DNA from: Candidatus Omnitrophota bacterium
GTDB lineage: Bacteria; Omnitrophota; Gorgyraeia; Zapsychrales; Fredricksoniimonadaceae
Length of the DNA stretch: 64,000 nucleotides
Direction of reading: 5' to 3'
Assembly: GCA_015233675.1 (NCBI GenBank)
Contig: JADFXH010000005.1
Span: forward strand, 80,964-144,963
Positions 12,001 through 57,000 of this stretch are shown here, in pieces. Each line of letters begins with the position of its first letter. Within the stretch, counting starts at the first letter, position 1. Under the pieces are notes generated by a model. It was not told the origin of the DNA, did not search any database, and was given only the letters and a program-made list of their open reading frames with translations. The position numbers and the translations under genes were made by a program.

Positions 12001-15000
12001 AAACGTTACGGCATTGAAATGGCTTATGAAGCACAGGACGTTTTCGGGGCCATTAAGAACCGTGACGAAGATGCTGTGGTAGAAACGCCGACCACGGCCA
12101 AAAAGGCCCAGTCGAACCACTGGAAGAAACTCATTTATAAGGCATTGCCCGAGGTTGAAATTCCGGATTCTTCCATTATTGAGTTGCCACAGAGCGCTGA
12201 ATATATGACGCCGGAACAATTGCGCGAAGAATTATTGAGTTTGAAATTCAACTCGCATATAAGCGATGGCGTAGGCGTACTTATTGGCCGCGATTTTAAT
12301 TCCATTACTCTTTATAAAAAAGACCCCACCCGCGCGCTACCGGGCCAGCCGATGGCAGAGTCCAAGGTGGTAGCGGCAGAAATGTCCCAGCATAACACCA
12401 ACACATTTGAGCCTATGAATGGACATAATGCAGCGGTGAGGCTTGCGATGTTGGCTTTAAGGGCTCTGGGGCATGAAGAGAAGGCGGATACTCTGGAATG
12501 GATGGTCAAGGCGGGCCTGGTGCGAGCCGGGCCGGTGGAAGGATTTTTAGCGACGGTTTGGTCAATGAAGGGCCAAGAAGGGATAGTGTTATCGAATAAA
12601 TATGCTGAGTTTAATAACATTGAAGAAAACGCCCTTAGTCTGATCCATGAAATCGGTGCCCTCTTAAATTTCAGTCATGAACAAAACACCGCTCGAGAAG
12701 ATCTGGCCCGCAAGTGGTTTGAGGCGAATGGCGCGCTGATAGGTTTGGAGGTAATCAAGCGCATCCATTCACGGGAAAGCAAGGAAGCGCAGGAGGTTAA
12801 GGCTAAAAACATAGCCATGCAGGAAAAGGGAGAATTAGCCCGCATTGACAGGTTTTATGTTCCTGCGCGGCATGATGATTTATTGTTGCGTGTTAAGGAA
12901 GATGTGTGGCAGGTTTTACGGCGTGGAGAATATAAAAAGGTGCTGGTGAATCAATGGGCATCCAGCAGCAGGGAATACCAATCCGCCATTGAAAGGGTGA
13001 CGGAGGAATTCGCCAAGGCAATTTTTGGAAATATAGCCAAGTCTTTGGCGTTAAGCATTACGGATAAGACGAGTGCCGCAGAATTATACGATATGTTAAT
13101 GCGGGAAGATTTGTCCCAACTGCCTGTTGAGGTGAAGTTAGCTGTTTATTCAGGACCGCCGGGTGGCGGCAAGCGTGTTATCTGGAACAAATACAATGAG
13201 CTTTATGGTTCGATTATGGAAAGGGTTGTATTGTTCCATACTCGAGCGATCCTGCCTTCAGAACAAATGGGAGTAAACTTCCATTACCGCAGCGTTGAAC
13301 ATTTACTTATGTTAGAAAAAGAAGGAAAAATCCTGACAGCAGTTGTTAATGGGGAATTGCAGGGGTTGCCCCTTACCAGCTTCGAGGACCAGTACGTGTT
13401 CATGGATCCTATGAGCAAAGCCAAATATGATGGGACAGCCCAGGTCAGGGGTTTGAGGGAGGTATTAAGCGGTAACAAGATAGGTATTTTCGAATGCGGT
13501 GTTTCGTGGTTTGAGATATTAAAGGAATTATATGGCGATGAGCTGATGAGCATTTTCATATCACCGTTTAGTGATAAGTATATGGCAGGGGCGATCAAGG
13601 ATCCGTTTACAATATTTGCGGCGAAGGTGGGGATGGAAACGGGACAGCGTATCCGCTCGCGAGAATATAAGGAAGCTGAAAAGTTAGCCAGGGAGGCGCG
13701 GATATTGCAATCCCAAGGCCGGCGAATAGAGGAAGATAAATTTTTCCAGCCGACCAAGCAGGAAGAATATGAAAACCGCATCAAAGAATCGGTTGAGCAG
13801 GTTCGCCGCAGGTTTGAATACCATAAAGTTTTATATAACTCTTGGGCGAAGACAAAGGAGGAGTACGAACAAAGGATGGCGTTTTTGGTGGAAGAATTTG
13901 CTATAAGCGTGTTCAGGAATTTATTGGGAGGCATTGGGCTGAAGCCTGAAGGTTCAACGGCAGAGGAGTTGGCCCAACAGATCAGGAGGATAGATTTAAG
14001 CCAATATGATACCTGCGCAAAACTGGCTATTTACAGCGGGCCGCCGGGCGGGGGCAAAGGGTCAGTGTGGGAAGGGTTTATTGATCATTATGGAGACTTG
14101 GTTGAGAGGTTTGTTTTATTCCATACAAGGCCGATGCGCAGCGGTGAGGTCATGGGGAAGGCGTATCATTTCAGGAATGATGAACATCTCCTCAAGCTTC
14201 AGGAAGAAGGCAAGATCATAACGGCGCAGGTCAATGGGCAAATGCAGGGACTGGCGGTGAGTTCATTTAAAGATCTCTTTGAGTTTAAAGATCCTAAATC
14301 AGGCCAAGAGATTAAAGATGATAATGGAGCGATGGTGCGTGGGATGGACGAAGTTTTCAAGGGCAATAAGATCGTTATTTTGGAATGCGGCCTGGCATGG
14401 TTTGAATCTTTACGCACGCAGTATGCGGATGAAATCATGAGTTTGTTTATCTCACCGTTTGCTGAAAATGAATTATCATTTAGCCATGTGGAGAAATTCG
14501 CCAGCAGGAGTGCCGACAAGAAAGATACCAGCCGGCCGCTGGCGGGACAGCCTATGGCTACTGTGGAGCAGGTAGCGGCAGAAATGGCGAAGCATGATAT
14601 CAGGAAATTTGTCAAGCTTGATAAATACAGTGCGGCGTTCAGGGTTGCGAAATCAGCGTTAAAGGCGATCCGTCGCAATGATATGGCAGAGATGCTGGAG
14701 TGGATGGTCAAAGTGGGGCTGGTGCGTGCCGGACCTGTGGAAGGGTTTTTAGCAACGGTTTGGGTTATCGATGGCAGGGAAAACATAATTCTCTCCGACA
14801 AGAATCCTGATATTGAAGAACAGATTTTAAGTTTGGTGCATGAAATAGGGGCGGTTGGACGTTTTGAGCGCAGCCACGAAGAGAACAGTACGAGGGAAGC
14901 GATGGCCCTCAAGTGGCTGCAGGCCAAAGGAGTGTTGATAGGCTTACAGGTTGTTAACCGGATCCATTTCCGCGAAGGCAAGGAAGCGTTGGCTGTTAAG

Positions 15001-18000
15001 GAAGAGAACTTGAAGAGGCTGGCAAGAGGGGAAAATATCGAGAAATTCTATCTTCCTACTAAACAGACAGATTTGCTCAAGCGGATAAAGGAAGCGATAT
15101 GGCAGGTATTACGACGCAACGAATATAGGAAGGTGCTGGTAAACCAATGGGCCTTAAGCGAGAAGGAATATCAGTCAACGATAAGCAAGTTGACAGAGGA
15201 GTTTGGTCTGGCGATTTTTGAGAATGTGGCTGAGGCACTAGGGCTGGATGTCCCGAATAAAGCAAGCGCGGATGTTTTATTTGAGATGTTAAAGAAGGAA
15301 GATTTAAGGCAGAAGTCAAGCATAGCGAAGATGGCGATTTATTCCGGTCCTCCAGGCGGAGGCAAGGGCGCAATATGGGATGAATTCATAAGGCTTTACG
15401 GGAAGATCCGCAGAGAAACATTTGAGAAGAACCTGCCTGATGGAGGGGAAGTTTTTGACTGGCTAATGCGAGAGGGCAAATTGGAGGGTATTGCCGGCCA
15501 AGAAGGGGCGCTAGCCGTGGAGATTGAAAAAATCAATGGATCTTTGATAGGGACGCCCTACCAAGAGAATGCCAAACAAATTATGGAATTTTTACAGCAG
15601 TACCAGTTTGGGGAGATGATTGACAGGTTTGTGTTGTTCCATACCCGGGAGATCCGTCCCAAGGAGGCGATGGGAGTTAATTACCATTACCGCAATGAAG
15701 ACCATTTATACGAGTTAGAAAAAGAAGAGAAAATCATTACAGCGCGGATCAATGGCCAATTGCAGGGTTTGGCTATAAAGGATTTTGAGGACCCGTATGT
15801 GTATGTAGATCCAAAGAGCAAGGAGAGACATGCAGGTACAGGGCATGTGCTTGGGATGGAATCGGTATTGGAGAGCAACAAGATCACAGTGCTGGAATGC
15901 GGCATGGCATGGTTTGAAGCGTTATCGCGTAAATACGGTGATGAGTTAATGAGCGTATTTATCTCACCGTTTAGCGACCAGTACTTGTCCAACGCGGTGA
16001 AAGATACAGGCACAGTTTTTGCGGCAAAGGTTGGGTTGGAAACAGGGTTACGCATTCATTATTATGAATACAGGGCAGCAGAACGTTTGAAAAAGATATC
16101 AGAGGACCTTCAAAATGAGGGAAGATTTATAGAAGAATTTTGTCAGCCGATGGGACGTTCGGATTTTGAGGAAAAGACAAAGGAAGGGGTCGTACTGACA
16201 AGCCGTCGCCACCAGTATGATAGCTCAGGAACTCCATTGGTGAGTCCGGCTGTCAATATATCTGACAGCGAGTATGACCGTCAGATGGATATTCTGGGAG
16301 AAGAATTTGCTTTAAGGGTGTTTAGGAACTTGGCGAAAAATTTAGAATTTTATCCGCCGGACAATACAGCAGATGAGATAGCAGACTTTTTTAGGGTTAT
16401 TGATTTAGGTCAATATGAGAGCAGAGCCAAGCTCGTATTTCTTGGAGGATCACCCGGAGTTGGCAAGAGGGCCGTCAGGAGAAAGTTTATTGAACGTTTT
16501 GGAGATTTAGTCGCGCACTTTGTTATGTTTTCAATTGAGGGGATGGGGCCCAACGACAAGATGGGAGAGACGTATCATTTCAGGAACAAGGAACACCTTT
16601 TGAGACTGCAAGATGAGGGTAAGGTAATTTTGCCTAGGATAGACGGAGAAGTTGATTGGAAAACCCCGGGTCTGGCCGTGAAGTCATTTGAGGACAGTTT
16701 CAAATTTAGAGACCCTGTAACGAAAAAGGTCACAACAGGTACCATGTGGGTACGGGGATTGGATGATGTTTTCAGTGACAATAAAATTGTCATTTTAGAA
16801 TGCGGACTATCGAGGTATGAGTCTTTAAGGACGCAGTATGCGGATGAACCGTTGAGCATATTTATTGCGCCTTTTAGCGATGAAGAGTTATCGTGTGAAC
16901 ATTTAGCGGAATTCGTACCTGCGGTTACGGGGCCTAATGTGAAAAAAGAGTTTGAAGAGCCGTTAGATTTAGGGCAAGCCTATCAATCCATTGTGGATCG
17001 GCTCAGGGAGATGGGCATTTTAGGACAAGGAGACGGGAGAATATCAAAAGAATTTGTAGCGGATGTGTTCGCGAATCATTTTTGGCATCATTATACAGGG
17101 GACGTTCCTGATCAAATTAGGGTTGAAAGACGCACGGCACAAACAATTATTGCGGCCTTAATGATCGAGGCGGCGAGGGAGAATCCGTCTCGGCAGGTTG
17201 TTTTATTCCATAATCCATATGAAAAGCTGGTTAACGCGCAAGAGATGCTCCCTGATATGTCAGCCGCAGAGATGCTTTTGATAATTTCTGATGACACGTA
17301 TGAATTAAGGAAGAGAACGTTGGAGTGGTTAAATTCCAAACGCGTGACCATAGATGACGAGTGGGTAAGGAAGCCGGCATTGCCGATCATAGGATTTGAA
17401 TTTAAAGGGCCGGAGGGGAGATATATCAAGGCAAGTGATTTGATTGAGGAGTACCGTAAATATGCTCCTGAGGCCAGTATAATGGTCCCGGTGTTTTTAC
17501 AGGGAGGCGTAGTTGAATTAAAAGAGATAAAAGGCCCAAAACAGGATTCCACCCGTCCTCAACCCGGCCAGCCGATGGCTTCTGCGGAAGCAGTTTCTAC
17601 AGAGCTGGCTAAGCATGATTTGAAGACATTTACAATATTGAAGGAAACTGATGAGTCCGTTGTTTTAGCGGTCAAGTCCATGAACGCGATGGAAGAGACG
17701 GATAAAGCCGAGCATCTATTGATGATGGTACGCGAAGGCCGCGTGCGTGCGGGGCCGGTCACAGGCTTCCTCGCAACAACCGCTGTTGTTAATCAAGCAG
17801 AAAATATAATCCTTTCGAATACTAATCCTTCCTTTAATACGGTTAAAGAACAAGCCTTGAGTCTAGTCCATGAGATTGGTGCGACAAGAACATTTAATTT
17901 GACACATGAAGTTAATAGCCAAAGAGAGTTGAAAGCAAAGACTTTGATTAGGGTAGCTGGATCCGCAGTAGCAGCCGCGTTTCTGGCATTTATGGGTAAG

Positions 18001-36000: not shown

Positions 36001-39000
36001 GAGCTGGCGAGAGTTAAATCGACGCCGGAAGATTATGCCACAGTCAAGAATTTCCTTCAGCCTGATTCAAAAATAGCGAACGAAATGCGTGCCGCGGTAA
36101 AAGCAGAGTTAGAACGCAGACAATATATTCCACAGGACTCAACAAGGCCTATACCCGGTCGACCGATGGTTCCGGCAAGGGTTGTGAACGCAGAGGTTGT
36201 TAAGCGGGATTTTGAAACTTATGCAATATTGTCAGTATACAGCCGGGAAGTAAAATTAGCCTTAGCGTATTTATGTTCCGTTGGGCTTGACAGCATGGCC
36301 GCCTGCTTAGAGGAAATTGCAAATGAGGGGCTTATCAGGGCGGGTCCCGTTAAAGGGTTCTTAGCCGCTGTTTATACTCTTCCTGACGGCAGGGAAACAA
36401 TAGTCCTTACCAATAAGCATCCTATCCATGACAATTTATTCGAACGTGTCGCGTCCTTAATCCATGAGATTGGAGCCACTGCGCACTTCAATTTAATAGA
36501 CAAAGAAAATGAGGACAGAGCTAAGGCGTTTTTAATCCTTAAAGAAGTTGCAACATCAAATAAATATTCGCCTGAAAGGGTTAGTTTAGACAGGACAATG
36601 GCAGGTAATGGGTCTGTTTTTGCTAAAACAATGTTAACAATATTGGTAGTAGGATTTTTAACTTTATCAATGATGCCGCAGAAAGCCATCTCTCAGGAAA
36701 GGGCATTAACTGGGCAAATGATTTTAGCCCAAGCAGATTTAAATGGCATGAACCAAGGGCAAAAAGTTAACTCGCAGGAAGATCCAATTAAAGAAAAAAT
36801 GGCAGGATTGTTGGTAAATTTAAAACATGGCAATGAACAAAAACAAAGATCCGCAGCGCAGGAGTTAATAAAAATTGGAGCGATACCAATTTTAATAAAG
36901 GATCAAATTGAGGTTAATAGTAGGGATTGGATGGGGACCTGGCCTGACTCCACGTATGAATTAGTATCTATTCTAGATAAGACCATAGCTCCAGGAGTTG
37001 AAAGGGAGATAGCTGAAGGAGATGCATCAGGCAGGTCATTGGTTGCAGTAAGTTCTTTATGTGCAGTAAATAACGTGCAAACCGTTGAGGAGGTTAGAAA
37101 GCAATGGATTGAAAAGATTAGAGAGCAAGCAAGTATAGGGAATATTGCAGATACTCAACAAGAAACAACTCAAAAGATTCTTCAGGAATTGGGAGCAACC
37201 TGGTGGGAAAAACAAACTGACGCATGGAGGACTGCTTATGCGTGGGTTCTGGGGATAATAGCTGCGTCTTTCATTTTACATTTATTTTTAACGAGGAAAG
37301 AAAGAACTATTAGATGGATTCAGGATTCTACCCATCAAGCAGGGGAAAGGGTATTTAAAAGGATCTTAAAAGGATTGGAGAATGATGATGATCGGATTCA
37401 ACGGACAGCAATAACAGCGCTGGGTAACAGAGGGGATGTTCGTGCTATTGAGCCGTTGCTCAAACAGTTAGCTGATAGAAGTGCGGACATGCGCCGTTTA
37501 GCTGTTGAGGCTTTGAAAAAATTAGGAGCGACCAAAGAACAATTTGTGAAGGGATATTTGGCAGCTTTAAGAAGTACAAATTTGTATGTTCAATGGGCAG
37601 CGGTCAAAGAGCTTGGGCAATTAGGGGATAAGTCTGCAATCGATCCTGTGATGGAATTTTTTAGTAAGGAACCGGATTCATATAGAGAAGTCATCGAAGC
37701 TCTAAATAAAATTGGCGCAACAAAGGAAAGGTTAATAGATGTATCTGTGAGGGCGTTAGATAATGCTAATTGGAATATTCAATGGATAGCGGCCAAAGAG
37801 CTTGGAGAATTAGGGGATAAGTCTATGATTGCCCCCTTAATGGAAACGATTAGTAAGAATTATACTTCAAGGGTTTATGAAGAGGTCATCGCATCTTTAG
37901 AAAAATTAGGTGCCACAGCAATACAGATAGATGAAGTTAAAAAAGTTAAAGAAATTGAAAAAAGGAAAGAAGAAGAAAGACAAAGAGAAATTGAGCAGAT
38001 GAGGGATGATTCTGGGTCAGATGATTATGACGCAGACGATTCATACTCCGGTCCGGGGGTTGGGGACACCTATTGTTTCGCTTTGCCAAGTATAATTATT
38101 GCCCTAAGAACATCAACAGAAAACACGCTCTGGATTGAAGTTGCGCTGTTTTCATTTGCAGCGATCATTTCGTTATTCACGCTGAAGAAAGTAATTAATA
38201 ACAAAAAAATAAAGAATATGGATACGCGCCGCGCGCAAGCTCCACCGGCAAAGCAAAATAGAAAATATTCCACATGGAAAACAATGCTCAGAATAATATT
38301 GGTGATGGTAACTTTGCCATTCTTAAGCGGATGTGGTCATGTTTCGCGGGGTATGAATACTAGTGAAAGTTTGATAATTTCAAGCCTAATCGTTTTTGGC
38401 GTGATAGGCATTGTGGTATTGGTGCTTTCCGGAATTGAGATCCTATATCAACTTTTTAAGATGAGCGGCTCAACGAAATCTTGGAAAACATATTGTATTA
38501 TGAAATATATAGTTGGTGTTCCAGTAATGGCATTTGCTCTTTTCAAAGTATTTTCTTCGGATTATGGTTATCTTCAATCCTTATTCATGCTGATAGGAGG
38601 GGCCGTGGTCTCTCTGCTTGGTCTTGGGATCAGCCGTCTTATTACAAGAAATGAGCAACGCCGTAATCAGCTGGCCTTTTTTATCGCTATTGTGCCAATG
38701 GTCTTTCTTTTAACACCAGCGCATCCGATTACTTTAGGAGTATTGCTGGCTGGTTTACTAAATGGCCGAATTTCTTTCTTAAAGAGATTAATGCCCGAAA
38801 CATTTTTTGTGTTTACGTCTTTCTTTCAGAAATATCCAAAAATAGGACTTTTCACGTGTGTCACATCAACTGGAATATTATTAACAAGTCTAGGGTATGA
38901 TGGGCTAAATTTCGTGCTTTTAGTTTTACTTTATTTTGTTCAATTAAGTATGATGGGGGCGTTATTTGGCATTGGTGAGGCAGGGGAGAAATACCGTTCA

Positions 39001-42000
39001 ATTTTATTTAAAGCAAAAGAACCCGCATCCAATAGATACGCCTACGATATAAGAGAAGATTGGTTTGCAGCCAAGTCTCTTACGGACGATCAAATTGATG
39101 AATTAATGACCAGCACTGATTATTCTCCGGAAAAGGAGATAATTTTTGTTTATGATGGGATGTCGTCTCTCCCATCGAGATTAATATATTCTCAAGTTTT
39201 CCTTAATGCAGAATTTGGCACGGATGAAACGCTCGGGATGCTTTATGGCACGATTCAAGGTGTTGCGGTTATAAGGAATATTGCTTTAAAAGAAGTGAAA
39301 AAGAGATACGGAACATCAGTAAAAACTTTTGATGATTTAGTTAAATCATTTCGATTACTAGGATTTGAAGTTAGGAGAACACCTTTCTTAGACGACGAGA
39401 ATGATCCTGCCCGCAACTTACCCGGCCGACCGATGGTTCCGGCAAGGGTTGTGAACGCAGAGGTTGTTAAGCGGGATTTTGAAACTTATGCAATATTGTC
39501 AGTATACAGCCGGGAAGTAAAATTAGCCTTAGCGTATTTATGTTCCGTTGGGCTTGACAGCATGGCCGCCCGCTTAGAGGAAATTGCAAAGGAGGGTCTT
39601 ATCAGGGCGGGTCCCGTTAAAGGGTTCTTAGCCGCTGTTTATACTCTTCCTGACGGCAGGGAAACAATAGTCCTTACCAATAAGCATCCTATCCATGACA
39701 ATTTATTCGAACGTGTCGCGTCCTTAATCCATGAGATCGGGGCTGTCTCTCAATTTAATTTACCAGATGAAGAAAACGAAGCCAGGGCCCAGGCATTCCT
39801 GGGAGCGATGGCCATTGTTGGATTGGAGATCGCTCAGCGTATTCATAACCGTGAATACAAAGAAGCTGAAACTCTCAGGGCCAATAGCAACCAGAAACAG
39901 GCACGCAACGAAATCATCACAAACTTCTTCTTACCAACTCCTCAGAAAGAGTTTGTGAATCGTATTATTGAAGCTGAGATGCAGGTGATACGCCGTGCTG
40001 AATACCGCGAGGTTTTAGTTAACCCTTGGGCTAATACATCTCAGGAATATGAAGCAGGTATTGCCAGGTTAACCGATGAGTTTGCATCATCTATATTCAG
40101 GAATATTTTGCAAGCGGTCGGCAGGCCGGCTCCTGATTACATGACAGCCGGCGATATGGCGGATATCTTAAGCGAAATGGATCTGTCGGCGTACAACACG
40201 AATGCGAAGCTTGTCATTTACAGCGGCCCGCCGGGCTCGGGCAAAGGCGAACTGGCTAAACGTTTTTATGAATTGTATGGAGACTTGGCAGAGAAGGTTG
40301 TCTTATTTCACACTCGCGAAATGCATGCCAACGAGATGATGGGTAGAGACTACCATTTCCGTACGGAAGAACATATTAAGTCATTAGAGCAGGAAGGCAA
40401 GGTGATCACGGCAGTAGTCTATGGACAATTACAGGGCCTGGCCGTAACGTCCTTTATTGATGAGTATGATTATTCAGATCCTAGGTCTTTGGGAGAATAT
40501 AAGGTAAGCGAAAATATCAAGGGTTTGGACTCAGTGATGCAGGGCGGCAAGATAGTCATTTTGGAATGCGGGTTGGCATGGTTTGAGCAGTTACGAAGAC
40601 AGTATGGCAGTGAGCTCATGAGTTTCTTTATAAGTCCATTTAGCAATGATGTATTAAATGCGCGTTCCCAAGATCCCAGAGATGTTTTGTATTGTACGAT
40701 CGGGCTTGAGATCGCCAAAAGAATTCATAATTGTGAGTATAAAGAGGCCGTTAGCCAGAAAATGATCAATGCAGATAAACAAGTACGACAGGAAAACATT
40801 ACGCATTTCTATCTGCCGATGTCACGAGACGCGTTTTTAACCCGGGTCAATGAAGCTGTTTTGCAGGTAAAACGCCGCCAGGAGTATTTTAAGGTGATGG
40901 TCAATCCGTGGGTCAATACATTTGAGGAATTTGAAGCAACGATTGCGAGATTAACAGAGGAGTTTGCCTCAACAGTGTTCAGAAATCTTTTGCAATCCAT
41001 CGGTAAGCAGGTTTCAGAGCAAGCAACAGCTAATGATATGGCAGGAATCTTACGCGGTATTGACCTTGCTCAATTTGACACATCAGCGAAATTTGTAATT
41101 TACAGCGGCCCGCCGGGTGGAGGCAAGGGATCGGTGGCCAAGAGATTCTACGCCTTGTATGGGGACTTGGCAGGGAAAATTGTATTGTTTAATACACGCA
41201 ACATTCGGCGCGGCGAAGAAATGGGAAGGAATTATCATTTCCGTAATGAAAAACCGCTTGAACTGTTAGCCCAGGAAGGCAATGTCATTACAGCCATGGT
41301 TAATGGGAAAATGCAGGGTTTGGCGGTTAAGTCTTTTGTGGATAATTATGAATATGTGGATCCAAGATCAAGGGAAAAGCAAAGCGGGATTGTAGTTATT
41401 CAGGGCTTGAATGCGGTTTTCCGTGGGCCAAAGATAGTGATTTTAGAATGCGGATTGGCATGGTTTGAGTCATTAAGCGCATATTATGGCGATCGATTGA
41501 TGAGTATTTTCATATCGCCATTTGCAGATGAACAATTAAAAGAGGTGAAGAAAGACCAAGAAGGAAAGGATCCAACCCGCGCCTTGCCCGGCCAAGAGAT
41601 GTTAACCTCCGATGAAGTGCGCAGGGTAGTCGATAAGGTGGGATTTGATAATCTGATCGTTCTTTCGGCAGACAGCCAGGAGGTGAAATTAGCCTTAGCG
41701 TATTTGCGCTCAGCGGGCCTGTATGACATGGCCACCTATTTAGGCGTAATTGCCAAGGCAGGGTTGATTAGGGCGGGACCCCTTGAAGGGTTTTTAGCCG
41801 CAGTTTATAGTTTGAAGGATGACCGCGAAGCCATCGTCCTTACCAACGATCAATGGATTGTTACAAAAGCCCAAATTGATAATGTCAGGCTAAATGAGAG
41901 GGATAAACTCAACTGGGATGAGGTTTCCCAAAATTTATTAGACAATGCATGGGCTGTGCCGATAAGTTCTACAGAAGTTCGTTTAACTGTAAATTTAGAG

Positions 42001-45000
42001 TCAGAAAAAGGCCGGATGTCGCGAGTTTTTGGTGAGAAATTTTCAAAAATTTTGCCTATTTTGCAGCAATCTCTTCATCCCGTCCATAGGGACTTATTCG
42101 AGCGCGCTGCGTCATTGGTCCATGAGGCAGGTGCCGCGCTCGGTGAATCGGATCAAGTAAACGAAGCCAGGGCCCAGGCCTTTTTACTGGTAACTGCTAA
42201 AGTGGGATTAGAAATCGCCAGGCGTATTCATAGCAGGGAATACATTGAAGCAAAGGGCTTGAGAGAAAAGAATAATACCAAATTAACAAATAAAGAAGAT
42301 CTCGAAGAAAAAGATTTCTACATACCGACGGAACAGGAAGAATTTGAAAACAGGGTCATTGAGGCAGCTGTGCAGGTAGTTCGCAGTGACGAGCATCCTG
42401 TAGTGTTGGTGAATCCATGGGTAAGGACAGATCAGGTTGAGGCTACTATGGAGGGATTAACCGAAGAGTTCGCAAGAGCGATATTCAGGAATCTTTTGGA
42501 AACAATCGGCTGGATGAGTGACGAGATGACGGAGGATGAAAGGGCGGATATTCTAGAGAATATGACAGCGGATGAAATGGCAGAGATTTTACAGTATGAA
42601 AATCTTTCAGGATACAATCCTGCCAAGTTCGTTATATATAGCGGACCACCGGGCGGCGGCAAGGGTACGGTGGCAAAGAGATTTTACAAATTGTACGGAG
42701 AACAAGGAAAGAATTTAGTAGAGAAATTCGTTTTATTTCATACTCGAAATATCCGTCAGGGTGAAAAGATGGGCGTCCACTATCATTACCGCAATGAATT
42801 AGACGGCAAGGTTATGAAAGACTGGTTTACTCAGATCGGCTGCGATAGGGACAGGATCGCAGAGGTTTTGGTTGAGACAGGATATCTGACAAAAGAGCAT
42901 CGTTTTATAGAAGAATTTAATGGTTTAAAGCAAGATTTTAAAGATGCTTTACCGGAATATACAGAGGAACAATTTACGCTGATTGAGCCTGTGTTGAAAC
43001 AATCGCTGGAGCATATTGGAATCACCAGCAATGTTCTTTTGGCAAAAGTAAATGGTCAGCTGCAGGGGCTGCCCTTGAAAACTTTAAGCGAGCCTGAGTA
43101 TTATTATGAAGATCCCACCACGGGGGAACAGCATAATAATAAAATGGAACCGAGTATAGTCAAGGGCCTTGATGCGGTGTTCGCAGGCAACAAGATTTAC
43201 ATTTTAGAATGCGGTTTGGCCTGGTTTGAGGCATTAAGGGCGCTCTATGGCGATAAATTGATGAGCATCTTTATTTCACCGTTTACTTATGAGCAATTAG
43301 GATATGTGAAGAAAAATAAAAACAGGAGAGATACAAGCCGTCCATTACCCGGCAAGCCGATGGTGAGTGTTGAAGTTGTTGTCAACGAATTGGCCCGGCA
43401 TGCGGCCAATAGTTTTGAGGTGTTAGATGAAAACAATTCCGCGGTAATGTTAGCGATAAAAATATTAGAGAATATAGGGAAAGAACTTAATGCAAAAGAG
43501 CTGAGAGAAATGGCGAAGCTGGGGCTGCTTAGAGCCGGTCCTCTCGACGGATTTTTAGCCACGATCTTCCTGGTTGATGGTCAAGAAACAATCCTCCTTT
43601 CAAATAATTACCCTGATTTTAATACAGTTGAAGAACAAGCCTTAAGTCTGGTCCACGAGATCGGAGCTGTATCCAAATTTAATTTTAGCCATGAAGAAAA
43701 CAGCAGCCGTGAAGAAGCCGGTCGGGCTTGGTTAAGCCGCGCGCCGCCGGTCAATCCTGCTGAAACTGCAGTTGTTGGTTTAGAAATTGCGAAGCGCATT
43801 CATGCGAGGGAAGTGAAGGAAGCCGCCGAAGTAGCGAAAGATTCCATACGAAAGAAGTATGCGGGAGAAGAAATTAAGAACTTCTACCAGCCGACAGTCC
43901 AAGAAGAATTTGTCGGCAGGATCCATGAGGCAGGCGTTCAAGTCGGACGTCGTCGTGAATACAAAGAAATTTTAGTCAATCCATGGGCCAAGGATGAAAC
44001 GGAATACAAGGCAACGATTGAAAGATTAACTGAAGAATTTGCTTTAAGTGTCTTTCGCAATATAGCGCAAGCCATTGGCATAGGATTTTCACCGACAGCG
44101 ACAGCTGAAGTGTTAGCCGAAGAAATTCAAAAGGCAGACTTGTCCCAGCACGATACGATTGCAAAGTTTGCGATATACAGCGGACCTTCGGGGGTAGGGA
44201 AAGAAGCCATATGGAAAAGGTTCTTTGAGTTGTATGGGGATATGATTTCAAGGTTTGTGTTGTTCCATACCCGTAATATCCGTAAAGGTGAAGTAATGGG
44301 TAAGAATTATCATTACCGTAATGAAGAGGCGCTTGAAGAGCTAGCCAAAGAAGGCAAAATCATCACTGCAAGGGTTAATGGTCAGTTACAAGGGTTGGCC
44401 ATCAGGAGTTTTGTTGACCAATATTCATATAAGGATCCTGTCTCAGGCCAGGAGTATGAAGGGATAGATAGGATAAGAGGGCTTGATTCCGTATTCAAGG
44501 GAAGCAAGATTGTCATCCTGGAGTGCGGGCTATCCTGGTTTGAATCGTTGAATGAGGAATTTGGGGATAAATTAATGAGCATATTTATCTCGCCGTTTAG
44601 CGATAAGGAACTTGAAGAGGCTGTAAATGATTCACAGAAAGTATTTGATGCAGTTGTTGGTTTAGAAATTGCGAAGCGCATTCATGCGAGGGAAGTGAAG
44701 GAAGCCGCCGAAGTAGCGAAAGATTCCATACGAAAGAAGTATGCGGGAGAAGAAATTAAGAACTTCTACCAGCCGACAGTCCAAGAAGAATTTGTCGGCA
44801 GGATCCATGAGGCAGGCGTTCAAGTCGGACGTCGTCGTGAATACAAAGAAATTTTAGTCAATCCATGGGCCAAGGATGAAACGGAATACAAGGCAACGAT
44901 TGAAAGATTAACTGAAGAATTTGCTTTAAGTGTCTTTCGCAATATAGCGCAAGCCATTGGCATAGGATTTTCACCGACAGCGACAGCTGAAGTGTTAGCC

Positions 45001-48000
45001 GAAGAAATTCAAAAGGCAGACTTGTCCCAGCACGATACGATTGCAAAGTTTGCGATATACAGCGGACCTTCGGGGGTAGGGAAAGAAGCCATATGGAAAA
45101 GGTTCTTTGAGTTGTATGGGGATATGATTTCAAGGTTTGTGTTGTTCCATACCCGTAATATCCGTAAAGGTGAAGTAATGGGTAAGAATTATCATTACCG
45201 TAATGAAGAGGCGCTTGAAGAGCTAGCCAAAGAAGGCAAAATCATCACTGCAAGGGTTAATGGTCAGTTACAAGGGTTGGCCATTAGGAGTTTTGTTGAC
45301 CAATATTCATATAAGGATCCTGTCTCAGGCCAGGAGTATGAAGGGATAGATAGGATAAGAGGGCTTGATTCCGTATTCAAGGGAAGCAAGATTGTCATCC
45401 TGGAGTGCGGGCTATCCTGGTTTGAATCGTTGAATGAGGAATTTGGGGATAAATTAATGAGCATATTTATCTCGCCGTTTACGAATGAGGAATTGGCCTC
45501 TTTATTACAAAATTTGCAAGCCAGACGACAAGACGCGGCCCGCGCCTTGCCCGGTCAGCCGATGTTGACCAGCAATGAAGTAAACAACTTTGTTAAGTTT
45601 GGGTTTGATTATACGGTGATCCTTGCAGAAGACAGCCAGGAAGTTCAAATGGCCTTAGCGTATTTGCGCTCGGTGGGACTTGATGCCATGGCCGACCATT
45701 TAGCGGAGATTGCCAAGGCCGGTTTAATCAGGGCAGGTCCGTATAAAGAGTTCTTAGCCGCTGTATATACTCTTGCTGATAAACGTGAAGCTATAATCTT
45801 TAGCGATTATCATCCTGTCCACGACAGTTTATTCGAACGCGTTGCTTCCCTAATCCATGAGATAGGGGCTACTATTCCATTCAATTTAACAGATGAAGAG
45901 AATGAGGCCAGGGCCCAGGCGTTCTTGAAATTCAAAGAAGTCGACGTTTCTTTATCTCGCCTTTCAATTGATAATGTGACAGAAAAGCTGCTGCTTTATC
46001 CCTTGGAGCTGATGCATTCGCCGGATCTTTATCAATACCTAGATGACTTTGATAGGACGCATTATGAATTTTCTGGAACAGGGGACGGGAAAGGCTATTG
46101 GAAGTCGAAAGATTTTAAATCGCACGGTCAAGATTTAGTTCTAGGCACCTGGGAAGATGTGATTAGCGACAATGGATTCAATGATACGATGCCACGTGAC
46201 ATTGTCATCCGGTTTAAAAGAGAAGGGAAAAGCGTCAGTTTTTATTGCTTTGATGATCATGGCCGCTCAGTAATGTATGCCATGGAAGCTGTTGCGCGGC
46301 ATGAGATGCCAGCAGATGGCAATATTCAACTATTTCTTGATGAGCATAGTGACGGCAGCCCTAAATCAGGGGTGGATGGGGTAATACAAAAAGACTTGTC
46401 AGCTGGCAAAAAATATCCGCCTGTTGGAGATGCTTTGCATCTGAAGGATTGGACTGCCTATGAGTACTTTGATATGTTAACAATGAATTGCTTCAACGCG
46501 CAATTCGTAGATATCAATTTCTTAAATAAGCATTTTTGGATTGATGGGGCATTAATCGTACGTCAATCGGATGGCTTCTCTTATTATAAGACGTTACCAT
46601 ATTTTTTATTGAAGGAACGGCCGAGAAATGAAGAAGTCTTCTTAAATATTGATACTGATGTTACCGGATTAGGAAGAAGGGATGCTTTTTACAATGATAT
46701 TGGAAGAAAGTGGGTCCAACAAAAGGACCTGATGTTTTTTAAGGAATTGCTGATAAAACTGGCCAGGGAAGACAGGAATTTGCTTTCTTCTTTTCATGCT
46801 AGCACAACTCATTTTTACGATTCATCGGATGATAATTATGTTGCTTTTGGTCATGTCGGTCTCGTTCGTTTTCTTGCTCGAGTAGCTCCCGCCATCCTAT
46901 TGTCTGACGAGCAAAGTCTTCCAGGTCCTAAGCTTCAAGAAATGGTCGATCAGGCTATAAATCAGCATCTTCAATTTTCTGGCTCTAAAGAGAAAGACCC
47001 CGCCCGCACCCTACCGGGCCAGCCGATGGCTTCTGCGGAAGCTGTTTCTACAGAGCTGGCCAAGCATGATTTGAAGACATTTACAATATTGAAGGAAACT
47101 GATGCTCCCGTTGTTTTAGCGGTCAAGTCCATGAACGCGATGGGTGAGCAGGACAAGGCCGGGCATCTGCTGATGATGGTACGCGAAGGCCTCGTGCGTG
47201 CCGGTCCGGTTGAAGGCTTCCTTGCTGCAACAGCCATGATTGATGACCAAGAAAACATTATTCTCTCCAATGCTTATCCCGAATACAACAGCGCTTTAGA
47301 ACAGTCGCTCTCTTTAGTCCACGAAATCGGTGCCACAGCCCGGTTTAATTTATCTCATCAGCAGAATGCCGAGAGAGAAGAGCTAGCCCGTACGGCGCTT
47401 AAGGCCAGTGGAGCTGTTTTGGATACGTTCTTTTACAGTGCTCATGAGACCAAGGAGGATTTTACGCCGCTTCTTCCTTATATGCGCAAGGAGATAGAGA
47501 AGGTCATCCGCGCCCAAAGGCCGCTTATCGTGATAATGGAAGGGGGGACGGTATTAAGCGCATTTTTATATATGCTCGAAGCCTTCCAAAAGTATGCCAT
47601 GGCCCATGATAGGCATCTTAGATTTAACGAGGTCAGGGCCATTGACTTGATGGATACCGTGATGGAAGGCATGGAGCGCGAAGGCTTTGACTATTTATTG
47701 AATTTGCTTGATGATCGCCGGTACGCAGGAGTTTTTCAGGCATTTTTAGATGAGACGAATGCCTCTTTGGCAGATCTGGTAGGGCGGGCAACAAATGTGG
47801 ATGTCAGTCTAAGCATGCCCGGCTTCCCCGGGGCAGTCATAGAGTTCATGAGGCCTTATCGGCAAAGGGGATTGAATGTTACTTATTTTGCGGAAGAAGA
47901 TGACCTTTTGACCATGCGTCATGGCCTGCGCGAGGATATTTTGACCAGCATGTCGGTCGAAAAGTTAATAAAAGGCCAAAGGGAGGAATTTTTGCGTGCC

Positions 48001-51000: not shown

Positions 51001-54000
51001 ATCCTGCCTTCGGAAAAAATGGGAGTCAACTATCATTATCGAAGCGCGGATGCTTTACGTAAATTAGAAAGTGAAGGGAAGGTCATAACCGCGGTTGTCA
51101 ACGGGTACTTGCAGGGCTTGGCCGTGAGCAGTTTTGAAGATTCTTATGTGTTTGTGGATCCGGCCAGCAAGGTCAGATATGAAGGAACAATTCAAATTCG
51201 GGGATTGGATGAGATGTTAAGCGGCAGCAAGATAGCGGTTTTCGAATGTGGTGTTTCATGGTTGGAGGAATTAAAAAGAAAATATGATCATGAATTGATG
51301 AGCCTTTTTATATCACCGTTTAGTGACCGGTATTTGGCCGGAGCTATCAAGGATCCGATCACGATTTTTGCAGCTAAGGTGGGCATGGAAACAGGTCAGC
51401 GTATTCGTTTGCGCGAATACAAAGAAGCGGAAGCGTTAGCCAGAGAGGCGAGGATAGCGCAGTATCAGGGCCAGCGTATAGAGAAATTTTTCCAGCCGAC
51501 TAATCAGCAGGAATATGAAAAACGTCTTAAAGAAGCGGTCGAGCAAGTGGCCCGCAGGTTTGAATACCATAAAGTTTTACAAAATCCGTTGGCGAAAACA
51601 CAGGAGGAATATGAACAGAGAATGAGGCTTTTGACGGAAGAATTTGCAATAAGCGTGTTCAGGAATTTACTGGATGCCATCAACGTTAAGTATGAAGAGC
51701 AGGCAACGGCCGATAATTTAGCCCAAATGATCAGAAGGATAGACGTAAGGCAATATGAAACAAAGGCCAAATTGGTAATTTACAGCGGGCCTCCGGGAGG
51801 AGGCAGAAGCCTGGTGTGGGAGGGGTTTGTTAAACGTTACGGAGATCTGATAGAGGGGTTTGTATTATTCCATACGAGGGCAATGCACAGCGGCGAGTGG
51901 ATGGGGAGAAACTACCATTTCAGGAATGACGAACACTTAATAAAATTGCAGAAAGAAGGCAAGATCATTACGGCAAAGGTCAATGGCCAAATGCAGGGAT
52001 TGGCGGTTGTTTCATTCGAAGATTCATTTAAGTTTAAAGACCCTCAAACAGGCAACGAAATTAACAGCGTTGATCAAGTCCGGGGTATGGATGAAGTTTT
52101 CAAGGGCAATAAGATCGTTATTCTTGAATGCGGTCTGGCATGGCTTGAAGCTTTACGGGCGCAGTATGCGGATGAAATCATGAGTTTGTTTATCTCGCCA
52201 TTTAGTGAAGAAGAATTGACATGTACTCATTTGGATATTTCTGACTGCGAAAACACGGTGGAAAATGATCACGCCCGTCCGCTGCCGGGCCAGCCGCCGG
52301 TATCTGTTGAGACGGTGGCCGCAGAAATGGAAGGGCATGATGTCAACGCATTTGTTGTCTTGGAAAAATACAGCGCGGCGGTCGCAGTGGCTATCTTAGC
52401 GCTAATGTCTATTAAACAGGTTTTTATGGCAGAGAAGCTTGAAGAGATGGTAAGGGCAGGCTTGGTACGCGCCGGGCCGCTGAAGGGATTTTTAGCAACT
52501 ACATGGGATATTGACGGGCAGGAAAACATAATTGTCTCGGGTAATTCCGATATTAACGAACAGATTTTAAGCTTGGTTCATGAAATAGGGGCGATTACGT
52601 ATTTTGGCCTGAGTCATGGAGAAAACACTGTTCGTGAAGAGTTGACCCGTAAATGGCTGGACGCCCAGGGAGCGCTGATAGGATTAGAAGTTGTCATGCG
52701 AATTCATGGACGTGAGTGTAAGGAAGCAGAGAAGATCAAGAAACAGAACGAGGAAAAGCAAGCAGACGGGAAGATAGGGGAAATTGAGAAATTCTACCTG
52801 CCTACGGAACAGTCGGTTTTGGAAAGAAGGGTTCAGGAAGCGGTATTGCAGGTATTGCGGCGACGTGAATACAAGAAAGTCTTGGTCAATCAAAGGGCCT
52901 CCAGCGGAAAAGAGTTTGAGGCTACGAAAACGAGGTTAACAGAAGAGTTTGCGCAGGAGATATTTAGAAATGTGGCGGCAGCAATAGGGTTAGCGAAAGA
53001 TTTAGGGCAAGAGGTTTTGGATAAAGCAAGCGCGATGGAATTATTTGAGATGTTGAGACAGAAAGATTTAAGCCAGGTGTCGAGTAGTGCGAAGATGGCG
53101 ATTTATTCCGGCCCTCCCGGCGGAGGCAAGGGAGTGGTTTGGGATGAATTTATAAGTCTTTATGGGAAAATAAGCAGAGGAAAATTTGTGGACGAGCTGC
53201 CGCCTTTTGGGGGTGAAGTTTTTGATTGGCTAATGGAAAATAAAAGCTTGGAGGGGACTCCGGGTCAAGAAGGGTATATAGCTGTTAAGATTGACAAGAT
53301 CAAGAAAGACTTAGATAAAGAGCCGTTATATAAAGAAAACTGCGAAAAAATTATAGCATTCTTAAGGAAGTTTCAGTTTGGGGAGAAGGTTGACAGGCTT
53401 GTGTTATTCCACACAAGAGATATCCGTGCCGGAGAAAAAATGGGGGTCAACTACCATTATCGCAGCAAGGAACATTTATTCAAATTAGCAAAAGAAAGAA
53501 AGATCTTGGTAGCGGAGGTTAATGGTGAACTGCAAGGGCTAGCGGTTGGCGATTTTACAGATCCTTATGTGTATGTGGATCCCAAGAATCATAATAGGGT
53601 TGCAGAAGGGATTATTGCGAAACCAAGGTTTTCAGGAGCAACTTTCATTACAGGCACAATTTTGGACCCGGACAATAAAGGGGCAGACGGCGTTTGGGAA
53701 GAATACTCCCCAACAGAGGTTTGTTTAAAAGAAAACAAAAACCTGACAGAAGCTGTTGTGCGGGAAATTGCAAAGAGCGATTTTGGTAAGATTTGGGCTA
53801 TTGTGCAAGAAGCCCAGGAAGTGCCGAAGATATTAGGGATGAATACGTTATTCGGCGGGGAGAAGATCATAGTGCTGGAATGCGGCATGGCATGGTTTGA
53901 AGAATTGACGCGAAAATATGGCGACAAGTTAATAAGTATATTTATTTCACCATTTAGCGATCTGTATCTGTCCCGCGCGGTTCAAAATCCGTTCACGGTC

Positions 54001-57000
54001 TTATTAGCAAAAGTAAGCCTGGAAACAGCGCTACGTATTCATTATTATGAAGACAAAGACGCAAGAGATTTAAAAAATGACTCAGAGGATTTTATAAAAA
54101 AGACTTCAGAGAATTTACCGCTTCCGGAAATACGGATTGAAAGATTCTTCCAGCCCACAGAACAAACAATATTTGAGGATAAGGCCAAAGAAGGGGCCAT
54201 CCAGGTCAGCGGGCGCCACCAGTATAATAGTGAAGGGGATCCTTTGGTGAGCCCTGAGGTAAACACGCCCGATGCAGATTACGACCGGGGAATGGAACAG
54301 CTGGCGGAAGAATTTGCTTTAAGAATATTTAGGAATTTGTGTAATGTCATGAGATTAACGTACCCACCAACCCCTTCTGCGGAAGAGTTAGCAGAGCTAT
54401 TAAGATGGGAGGGTCTAAGTAAAGACCCCAAGGGAAGGCTCGTCCTTCTTGGGGGGGCACCCGCAGTGGGAAGGAAGTCAGTATTAGAAAGATTTATTGG
54501 GAGGTTTATTGATTTAGTGGAACGCTGCGTTGAGTTTTCATCTAGAGGGATGGGTAAGAAAGATACGATGGGAAGGACGTATCATTTCAGGAACAAGGAA
54601 CATCTGCTGAGGCTGAAAAATGAAGGCAAAATTATTTTACCACGAGTTGATGGGGGAATGGGGGCTGTTGCAAAACAAGCATTTGTACGCGCCCATCTTA
54701 ATGCTGACCTGATCTGGAGTAAATTGATAGAAAATGGCTATATTGGGGCTAATGGCGCGATCCAGGACAAATTCGTAGAACTTAGAGATTACTCCCAGAT
54801 GATCTTGCCCCAAACCCTTGATGACCGGAAAGAAAAAATTTATTTCATTTTGCAACAGGCCCAAATTGATTGGGAAACTCCGGGGCTGGCAGTGCAATCA
54901 TTTGAGGATACATACGAATTTAAAGACCCGCTGTCGAAAAAGGTCATAAAAGGTACGGCGCAGGTTCGCGGGCTGGATGATGTTTTAACGGACGGGAAGA
55001 TCGTTATTTTAGAATGCGGACGTGCGCTGTATAACTCGTTAAGAGCGCAGTATGAGGATGAACCATTGAGCATATTCATTTCTCCGTTTAGTGAAGAAGA
55101 GTTGTCGTGCGAACATTTGGGGAAGTTTGCTCCTGTTATTGCCGCACCTCAAGGAAGGCAAGATCCTGTATCTTCCGACGAAATAACCGCGCAGACAAAG
55201 ATCCCTGAAGGCCCTCTAGATTTGGGGCAGGCCTATCAAAGTATTCTTGATCGTCTTAAGGAGAAAGGTATTTTAGGTGAAGGGAGAATAACTAAAGAAT
55301 TTGTTGCGGACGTGTTTGCCAATCATTTTTGGCATAATTATACAGGTCGATTGCCGGATCAAGTAAGGATCGAGAGACGCGCGGCACAAACTATTATAGC
55401 GGACTTAATGATCAGGGAAGCCCGAAAAGATCCTTCGCGGCAGGTCATTTTATTTCATAATCCATATGAAAACCTTGTTGACGAGATGATCCCTGATATG
55501 GCAGTCGCAGAAATGCTTTTGATAGACCCTTATGGCACGCCAGAATTTGAAGAGAAAACCTTGGAGTGGTTGAATGATTTGCCGGTCATCATCAATGACG
55601 AGTGGACCAGAAGGCCGGAATTGCCCATTATAGGCTTTGAATTTAAGGGGCCGGCGGAAAAATACATCAAGGCCAGTGATCTGGTCAATGCCTACCAAAA
55701 ATATAATCCTGATGCCAGGATTATGGTTCCTGTTTTTGTAGAGAAGAACATAGTTGAGTTAAAAGAAATAAAAAATACACAACAGGATAATGCCCGGCCA
55801 TTACCCGGCCAGCCGATGGCTAGTGCTGAAGTTGTGTCCGTAGAGTTGGCCAAGCATGATTTGAAAGTTTTGACAATTTTGAAAGGAACTGATGCTTCCG
55901 TTGTTTTAGCTGTCAAAGCCATGAATGCGATGGGGGAAGAAGATAAAGCAGAACATCTGCTGATGATGGTACGCGCAGGCCGCGTACGGGCTGGTCCGGT
56001 AAAAGGATTCCTTGCGGCAACAGCCATGATTGACGGTCAAGAAAATATTATTCTCTCCAAGGCGTATCCCCAATACAACAGCCCCATAGAACAGTCTCTC
56101 TCGCTGGTCCATGAAATAGGCGCAACAAGTCAATTCAATTTAAGTCATGAAGCGAATGCAAAACGTGAAGCTGCGGTGTATTTGGCGAGGACATCGTTCG
56201 AGCATTTCAACATTATTCCCTCGGTGACAGTACGGGATCGTGAAAAAGATATGAAAGCCGGAGTGCGTGAATTTATAGAGTATGCTCAAGACAACGCAAT
56301 AACATATTCATTAGAGTTAAAGGATGTTCCGCAAGTAAATGAGCAAAGAAGGACACTGCATCCTAAATATCTTAACCCCAGGGCGCCAGAGCGAGAAAAG
56401 GGAACATTAAATTTGGCCGGAGATGAGCTGCAGAAACAGGCAGAAGACGGTACCTTATATATCTATGAGGCCGTAAAAGAGCTGAAGCCTTCGGTTATTT
56501 CTTTTCATTTAGGGTTTACAGGCCAAAGAATGCGCGAGCCAGAGAATGAAAGGAACATAGTAGTTGTCGACGATATGGAGTCCCAAGAAAAAATTAAGAA
56601 ATTAATTAAAGGAATTCAGTTGGTGGCTAAGGGATTACGGGACAGAGATTTCAAAGGTGATATCTTGCTTGAAAATTTAGTTTGCCAGCATGCAAATACT
56701 TACGAAAGAGTCTGCGAGCCTGATTTTATTCGTGGTCTATTTGACAGAATAGAAAAAGGATTAAACGTGGGCATGCTTATTGATACTTCACATTTAATTG
56801 TCAGCGCCAGTAATTTGAAAATAGATCCGATAAAGTATTTAAGGACCGTCCTTGATAAGCAAACAATAGGGCTTCTTAAAGAAGTGCATTTAACGGTACC
56901 GGAATATGACAAAAAGCAGGATTTGCTGTTTGACGCACATAGCCCTTTTTCGCAGAGCATTGGTTTGGAAGCCAATAGAATGTCCAGAAGACTATTAAGT

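Follow-up and report, generated by a model that had tools for sequence, protein, structure and literature searches.

A near-identical 833-nucleotide tract in paired guanylate-kinase-like units of a giant Omnitrophota gene: probable recent gene conversion inside an ancient doublet

The stretch of DNA analysed here (the window) comprises 64,000 nucleotides (nt) of contig JADFXH010000005.1 from a Candidatus Omnitrophota bacterium (assembly GCA_015233675.1, positions 80,964 to 144,963) and is occupied by part of a giant gene in which guanylate-kinase-like units of 294 amino acids, termed K units, recur in adjacent pairs. In one such pair, doublet G, the first unit (G1, at position K1) and the second (G2, at position K2) share a tract of 833 nt that is identical at all but one site. 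The comparisons presented below indicate that this identity probably reflects a recent 833-nt gene conversion, from K2 to K1, inside an ancient doublet, rather than the gain of a copy. What is observed is the identity itself, together with a period that has stayed at 882 nt, flanks of K1 type and a core of K2 type; we infer the polarity of the exchange, its molecular pathway and its having taken place in the organism rather than in the assembler. The elements of the locus are as follows.

43767-44599, forward strand: copy 1, core of unit G1 (position K1); the probable conversion recipient, with a K2-type core between K1-type flanks.
44649-45481, forward strand: copy 2, core of unit G2 (position K2); the probable donor, in a G2 region that is collinear with unit B2 of the sister doublet B at 80-98% amino acid identity.
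44600-44648, forward strand: K1-specific tail and inter-unit linker SDKELEEAVNDSQKVF, 49 nt, apparently unconverted; ortholog of the B1 tail SDKELEEAVNDPQKVF.
45482-45530, forward strand: K2-specific tail TNEELASLLQNLQARR, ortholog of the B2 tail SDDELPSLLQNLPATN; it leads into the next L (linker) module.
44403, forward strand: C, with T at 45285; the sole difference between the copies, synonymous (ATC/ATT, Ile).

The two copies lie in frame with a start-to-start spacing of 882 nt, and their identity ends abruptly, extending not one base further on either side. Their only mismatch falls at a third codon position, so that the two cores are 100% identical in protein; unit B2 carries C at the homologous site. 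The remaining 49 nt of the period are diverged, with identity at only 3 of 16 residues. A sequence-only reading of this DNA had given the same repeat coordinates, lengths and single synonymous difference, and was also right that other K modules are strongly diverged: the other K1/K2 pairs in the window share 48-76% nt identity. Were the two cores related only as B1 and B2 are (75.7% nt identity), at least 832 matches in 833 positions would be expected with a probability of about 1e-98. The runner-up internal pairs in the window are one of 379 nt at 93.4% and one of 831 nt at 84.5%. Convergence and purifying selection were both ruled out as the source of the identity, since synonymous sites are identical too and the other doublets have diverged to the extent just given. 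A mobile element or insertion was likewise discarded, the tract being an in-frame K core with all family-invariant residues. Tandem Repeats Finder reported no repeat at 43767-45481, because its longest period, 500 nt, is below 882 nt.

Two types of module recur in the window, the L module (about 140 amino acids, 18 copies) and the K unit. Adjacent K1-K2 pairs make up eight of the nine K arrays, the exception being array F, which is a single unit. The arrays are listed here with the amino acid (aa) positions at which K1 and K2 start.

Doublet A, forward strand: K1 and K2 start at aa 1551 and 1845.
Doublet B, forward strand, 6820-8583 (B1 6820-7701, B2 7702-8583): starts at aa 2274 and 2568; sister of doublet G and its unconverted reference.
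Doublet C, forward strand: starts at aa 4244 and 4540.
Doublet D, forward strand: starts at aa 4978 and 5341.
Doublet E, forward strand: starts at aa 13270 and 13564.
Array F, forward strand, 42193-43332 (aa 14065-14444): a single K unit between two L modules.
Doublet G, forward strand, 43765-45528: starts at aa 14589 and 14883; holds the identical tract.
Doublet H, forward strand: starts at aa 16828 and 17124.
Doublet I, forward strand: starts at aa 17557 and 18002.

In A, B, E, G and H, K2 starts exactly 882 nt after K1; in C the distance is 885 nt. The best self-match offset is also 882 nt in four relatives of the gene from other samples or metagenomes (L001, L002, L005 and L007). Since the same spacing occurs in other arrays and in relatives, the period is old and conserved and does not mark a new event; these comparisons identify the K1-K2 doublet with an 882-nt period as the ancestral architecture. 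Array F is the only case of a single K unit between two L modules; it carries two insertions and a K2-type tail, and could be a doublet collapsed by recombination, a possibility on which the identities of its halves to A1, A2, E1 and E2 do not discriminate.

This architecture bears directly on the most obvious explanation for two identical neighbours, namely that one 294-codon unit was recently duplicated in tandem by unequal crossing-over, one K becoming two. In bacterial surface proteins, unequal crossing-over gives rise to identical in-frame direct repeats one unit apart, with a potential for copy-number polymorphism, and doublet G resembles these in that its copies are spaced by exactly one unit, a multiple of three. 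Moreover, the number of K units per array varies, with one in array F and at least three in tandem in the relative P0001, so that gain and loss of K units do occur in the family. However, a simple tandem duplication predicts 882 identical nt, and 833 are observed. The flanks are position-specific: the 49-nt spacer is the ortholog of the B1 tail and copy 1 is a K2-type core between K1-type flanks. Copy gain also calls for a one-unit ancestral state, which is contradicted by the doublets in eight of nine arrays, sister B among them, and by those of the same period in the four relatives. We consider this explanation highly improbable. The earlier description of an 882-bp tandem duplication of a whole unit thus holds for the in-frame spacing and fails for the extent of the identity. 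Similarly, a very recent recombination in exact 294-aa register is upheld, whereas a new copy in an expanding array is not: the period is ancestral, the tract is shorter than the period, the spacer is B1-like and the core is of K2 type.

The history of doublet G was read against its sister doublet B, in which the B1 and B2 cores are 67% identical in amino acids and 75.7% in nucleotides. The upstream L modules of the two doublets are orthologous.

43324-43764, forward strand: L module before doublet G; orthologous to the L module before doublet B, with 88-98% aa identity.

The tails are specific to their positions. Between the tails of G1 and B1, 15 of 16 residues agree, and the tail of G2 is similar to that of B2. 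The intervening spacer is unlike a joint of the unit's own ends and is a copy of neither flank. When B and G are compared collinearly, the high identity of the upstream L module falls to 55-70% aa over most of the G1 core (80-82% in one mid-core stretch), recovers to 90% over the G1 tail and lies mostly at 75-98% in G2. At the amino acid level the G core is closer to B2 (83% identity) than to B1 (69%), and a neighbour-joining tree of cores groups G1 and G2 with B2 at 97.5% bootstrap, leaving B1 outside. We then scored as informative the positions where B1 and B2 differ, counting B1-like against B2-like states in G. For G1 the ratio is 88:3 over the upstream 120 nt, 57:127 within the tract and 26:3 for the spacer (Fisher tests, p = 1e-28 and 2e-9). 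In the G2 tail, 21 sites are B2-like and 3 B1-like. The locus thus combines two signatures by which gene conversion is recognised: a near-identity tract with homologous but diverged flanks at unchanged spacing and copy number, and phylogenetic incongruence, the tract being of donor type and its flanks of recipient type. The same tree separates K1 and K2 clades at 100% for doublets C, H, D and I, and so the K1/K2 split predates the copying of the supermodule L-K1-K2.

Several observations weigh against a conversion from K2 to K1, or at least complicate it. Within the tract, 57 of the 202 informative sites are B1-like, although substitutions on the B2 lineage would account for most of them. In both G copies the P-loop, GPSGVGKE, has the unusual Ser and Val in common with that of B1 (GPSAVGKK, 7237-7260), whereas B2 (8119-8142), the units of L001 and nearly all other units have GPPGGGKG. 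These shared derived residues hint at a mosaic with more than one exchange, and it is suggestive only that the homogenised core may be a K2 backbone with an older K1-derived patch. In the clade formed by A, B, E, G and the L001 cores (X), K1 and K2 cores do not form separate clades in the tree; the antiquity of the K1/K2 distinction there therefore rests on the tails, the spacing and the comparison with B. The polarity is likewise inferred from a comparison with B as the single sister doublet. An unconverted G1 allele was not observed, the nearest relative found being only 61% identical; the physical existence of two identical copies is taken from the assembly; and the donor may lie outside the 64-kilobase (kb) window.

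That last point leads to an alternative in which a third identical copy, located beyond the window, served as donor to both G cores. The window does cover only part of the gene, whose open reading frame (ORF) is open at both ends, and the relative L002 has near-identical K segments 8.5 kb apart, so that longer-range exchange occurs in the family. Such a history would require two conversions sharing the same end points where one would suffice, the 64 kb contain no other copy above 85% identity, and adjacent direct repeats are the most likely partners. We accordingly regard a third copy as very improbable, and a single exchange between the neighbouring units of G as the probable course of events.

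Alternatively, the true genome might have two diverged units or another copy number, and the repeat might have been made by the assembler, either by threading one core twice through a repeat graph or by collapsing a longer array. K units share conserved blocks of up to 33 nt, which are possible repeat nodes at small k, and a short-read loop gives only the minimum number of passes; the copy number of 2 at the G locus is consequently a lower bound if the assembly is from short reads. In contrast, the 49-nt spacer occurs nowhere else in the window (its closest counterpart, the B1 tail at 7655, has 7 mismatches) and has a core on both sides, and all four junction 40-mers are unique. It follows that no molecule containing the spacer can have fewer than two cores. 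Elsewhere in the window, exact matches to the tract reach no more than 33 nt, shorter than the final-round k of modern assemblers. Furthermore, the copies differ at one site, which is unexpected for one graph path written twice; the in-frame result keeps all family-invariant residues; and the same pattern occurs in an independent metagenome-assembled genome (MAG) of another study (L003, below). An assembly artefact is therefore unlikely, if somewhat less so than the two alternatives considered above.

On the preferred interpretation of a conversion within G, the supermodule would have been copied several times within the gene, with B and G arising as sisters. Much later, the 833-nt core of G1 would have been replaced non-reciprocally by that of its downstream neighbour G2, either by gene conversion of the RecA type or by a double template switch, as the direct repeats, which lie 882 nt apart, were replicated. 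The end points of the exchange would lie in the nucleotide blocks for VGLEIAKRIH and LMSIFISPF, the two best conserved of the unit, with the position-specific parts left intact: the L module upstream, the K1 tail of 49 nt and the K2 tail. A single synonymous change would have come later. The tract does end within conserved blocks, and at the 5' end B1 and B2 are identical over a block of 33 nt, making it plausible that such blocks anchor strand invasion or a template switch. As a consequence, position K1 of G would now carry a K2-type nucleotide-binding motif, with RKGE where B1 has RKNE. With two 833-nt direct repeats, the locus would also be liable to lose or gain a unit, and since perfect repeats of this length are good recombination substrates, copy-number polymorphism at G today is a reasonable expectation.

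Comparable tracts were found in relatives. In L003 (GCA_028710905.1, JAQTTE010000033.1, MDD5044590.1), adjacent K domains contain an exact repeat of 746 nt (6722-7467 versus 7586-8331) with a period of 864 nt (288 codons); the tract is again shorter than the period, and its flanks are at random-level identity. In L002 (ENA ERZ1286166, contig_3842), a K-doublet segment of 2,933 nt occurs at 798-3730 and at 9299-12228, the two being 99.86% identical. The giant-gene region of this contig is called as many consecutive genes on the same strand, probably owing to frameshifts. In L001, the cores X1 and X2 cluster at 100% bootstrap with 72% aa identity, consistent with an older homogenisation. From these cases, exchange between modules is recurrent in the gene family. 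With the number of K units varying as well, the general idea of the sequence-only reading, that unequal recombination acts on K arrays, is reasonable, although the G locus is not an example of a gain.

Tracts of 99.9-100% identity are thus present in three independent genomes, at lengths of 746 nt, 833 nt and 2.9 kb. We tentatively raise the possibility, in which we place rather limited confidence, that giant Omnitrophota genes are recombinationally active today, with adjacent and distant K modules repeatedly overwriting each other. If so, their domain arrays would undergo concerted evolution, a degenerate nucleotide-binding site could be 'repaired' with sequence from a neighbour, and new perfect repeats would continually appear and seed changes of copy number. 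Ongoing conversion would then be a third answer to the question of recent expansion versus ancient duplication posed in 10.64898/2026.06.07.730766.

The process proposed here is of a known kind. Gene conversion is reported to be widespread in assembly-line polyketide synthases (PMC8256042; see also PMC4256081). There too, non-reciprocal exchange occurs within a gene, between paralogous enzymatic modules of one very long modular ORF, tracts of near-identity are bounded by conserved blocks, and neighbouring modules group with each other in phylogenies and not according to position. By analogy, we class the 833-nt homogenisation with this process, polyketide synthase modules being its closest counterpart, in an unusual host gene. 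The modules themselves differ, being guanylate-kinase-like P-loop domains of an Omnitrophota giant protein and not ketosynthase (KS), acyltransferase (AT) or acyl carrier protein (ACP) domains, and no collinear chemistry is known for them. The window also holds one clear recent event, and no GRINS-like element was seen, none having been searched for. In comparison with the surface-protein repeats mentioned above, the identity at G is shorter than the period, the flanks are position-specific and the copy number is ancestral.

The host gene is consistent with the Omnitrophota giant proteins ('Archaeovorins'), whose defining domain set includes NUDIX, glycosyl hydrolases, HEAT, transferases and methylases (10.1101/2023.11.21.568195), and of which a multi-enzyme class has been described (10.64898/2026.06.07.730766). 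In line with them, it has an ORF of more than 21,000 codons, open at both ends, a mixed domain content with NUDIX, glycosyl hydrolase and HEAT domains, and relatives that are all Omnitrophota. Neither guanylate-kinase domains nor gene conversion is a term found in either of these two papers. The repeat architecture of such proteins has been ascribed mostly to ancient duplication followed by divergence, with strict nucleotide tandems small and locally stable (10.64898/2026.06.07.730766). In contrast to such strict tandems, the near-perfect 833-nt pair is explained here by homogenisation of an ancient pair. The repeat would show that sequence is still being exchanged between modules of a gene that exceeds 60 kb, as opposed to an array growing unit by unit. 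It would follow that the identity of neighbours does not give the age of their duplication, which bears on how giant Omnitrophota genes are maintained. There is also a practical side, as converted tracts of 0.75-3 kb would break or miscount short-read assemblies of giant genes. Finally, paired guanylate-kinase-like modules emerge as a recurring building block of giant Omnitrophota proteins, from a rare and uncharacterised family.

The assignment of the K unit rests on a match of the G unit to Pfam PF00625 (Guanylate_kin) at 45.1 bits, against a cut-off of 25.2, over profile positions 4-70 of 182; other K units match the profile up to positions 3-132. Its known counterparts are guanylate kinases proper and proteins with several such domains, for example FAP42 of Chlamydomonas, described as having four (10.1101/2021.06.16.448709): the Pfam match of the unit exceeds the cut-off, and its P-loop and GMP-binding motif align to solved guanylate kinases.

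44182-44205, forward strand (G2: 45064-45087): P-loop GPSGVGKE of G1, aligned to GPSGVGKGT of Staphylococcus aureus guanylate kinase (4qrh, 2j41).
44266-44316, forward strand (G2: 45148-45198): GMP-binding-type motif HTRNIRKGEVMGKNYHY, aligned to TTRQMREGEVDGVDYFF of 4qrh and 2j41.

The G units conform to the GMP-binding pattern T-R-x-x-R-x-G-E...G-x-x-Y-x-[FY], and depart from the canonical P-loop G-x-x-G-x-G-K-[ST] in having no Ser or Thr after the Lys, a departure seen also in the GPPGGGKG of most units. In H2 and I2, the P-loop Lys is replaced by Arg. The GMP-binding motif is degenerate in C1, H1, D2 and I2, and the P-loop as well in D2 and I2; with motifs in this state some of these units are probably not catalytic, D2 and I2 in particular. 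Apart from lacking the P-loop Ser/Thr, the K unit differs from guanylate kinases in having about 130 extra residues and in being circularly permuted as phased here. This phasing reflects two observations, that the C-terminal helices of the kinase fold align (weakly, below threshold) to the start of the K unit, and that profile matches in relatives run in the order core, then helical part; the unit as first phased is therefore a circular permutation of the kinase domain. For these guanylate-kinase-like units, ATP-to-GMP phosphotransfer is a putative activity.

A confident AlphaFold model of the doublet (predicted local distance difference test (pLDDT) score 88.7, predicted template modelling (pTM) score 0.82) gave Foldseek matches of probability 1.0 to many guanylate kinases; the TM-scores per target are about 0.5 with high root-mean-square deviation, and the alignments span domain breaks. 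Foldseek also matched long chains of the Chlamydomonas ciliary C1 central-pair apparatus. FAP42 is a weak sequence match to the K unit and is named from that match only, and not from chains 7sqc_1A to 1D. A K-unit profile search retrieved 29 representatives at E <= 1e-30 among 1.84 billion, MDD5044590.1 of L003 being one of them, in keeping with a rare family. Large insertions of 60-130 aa are present in units D1 (14932-16020), I1 (52669-54003) and I2 (54004-55137), placed after the P-loop helix or within the nucleotide-binding subdomain.

The giant gene fills the window.

1-63999, forward strand: stop-free ORF, part of a giant multi-enzyme gene of Omnitrophota type, from the frame scan, Pfam matches and relatives.

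This ORF is one reading frame of 21,333 codons with 0 stops in frame +1, and the protein encoded within the window alone exceeds 21,000 amino acids. Its Pfam matches comprise many to Guanylate_kin, together with NUDIX, Glyco_hydro_2_C (GH2 TIM barrel), HEAT_2, Maf, DUF218, ARMT1-like and 2H-phosphodiesterase; no glycosyl transferases, peptidases or methyltransferases were seen by Pfam within the 64-kb window. Contig and protein searches found the closest relatives exclusively among Omnitrophota, the protein relatives being labelled Candidatus Omnitrophota or Omnitrophica at NCBI. A first metagenome scan for close strains returned no relative. The genome-contig scan returned L001 alone, and a word-indexed protein search gave 5 distant matches. 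L001 (DYQZ01000001.1, 41920-63707), whose 61% identity applies over the doublet, is a contig from a Candidatus Omnitrophus MAG and is likewise one long ORF. Between collinear flanks (window aa 274-1300 and 3226-3477), it contains only a single K doublet, against two or more (A and B) in the window gene, and hence the number of L-K1-K2 supermodules differs between lineages.

The L modules were compared separately.

18 L modules, forward strand: starting at aa 1414, 2128, 3086, 4106, 4840, 5847, 11658, 12045, 13133, 13856, 14442, 15176, 15664, 16314, 16690, 17421, 18594 and 19057, with a conserved pattern.

The pattern kept in these modules is RAGP..GFLA....QE.I.LS....SL[VI]HEIGA. They match no Pfam family, and HExxH occurs nowhere in the window protein. 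In the relatives P0010 and P0012, the apparently matching part (judged by eye, unaligned) contains an HExxH motif, LFHELGH, and L could represent a zincin-like module that has degenerated. The second most similar internal pair in the window (36152-36530 versus 39419-39797, the 93.4% match mentioned above) covers the L modules that start at aa 12045 and 13133, and suggests another fairly recent duplication or conversion on the scale of the supermodule. The few minus-strand ORFs (13284-13934 and 14199-14981, among others) run antisense to the giant frame and are probably spurious. Lastly, an AT-rich tandem repeat at 54055-54117, with a period of 23-24 nt and 2-3 copies, lies inside the ORF within unit I2 and was the only array that Tandem Repeats Finder reported in the window.

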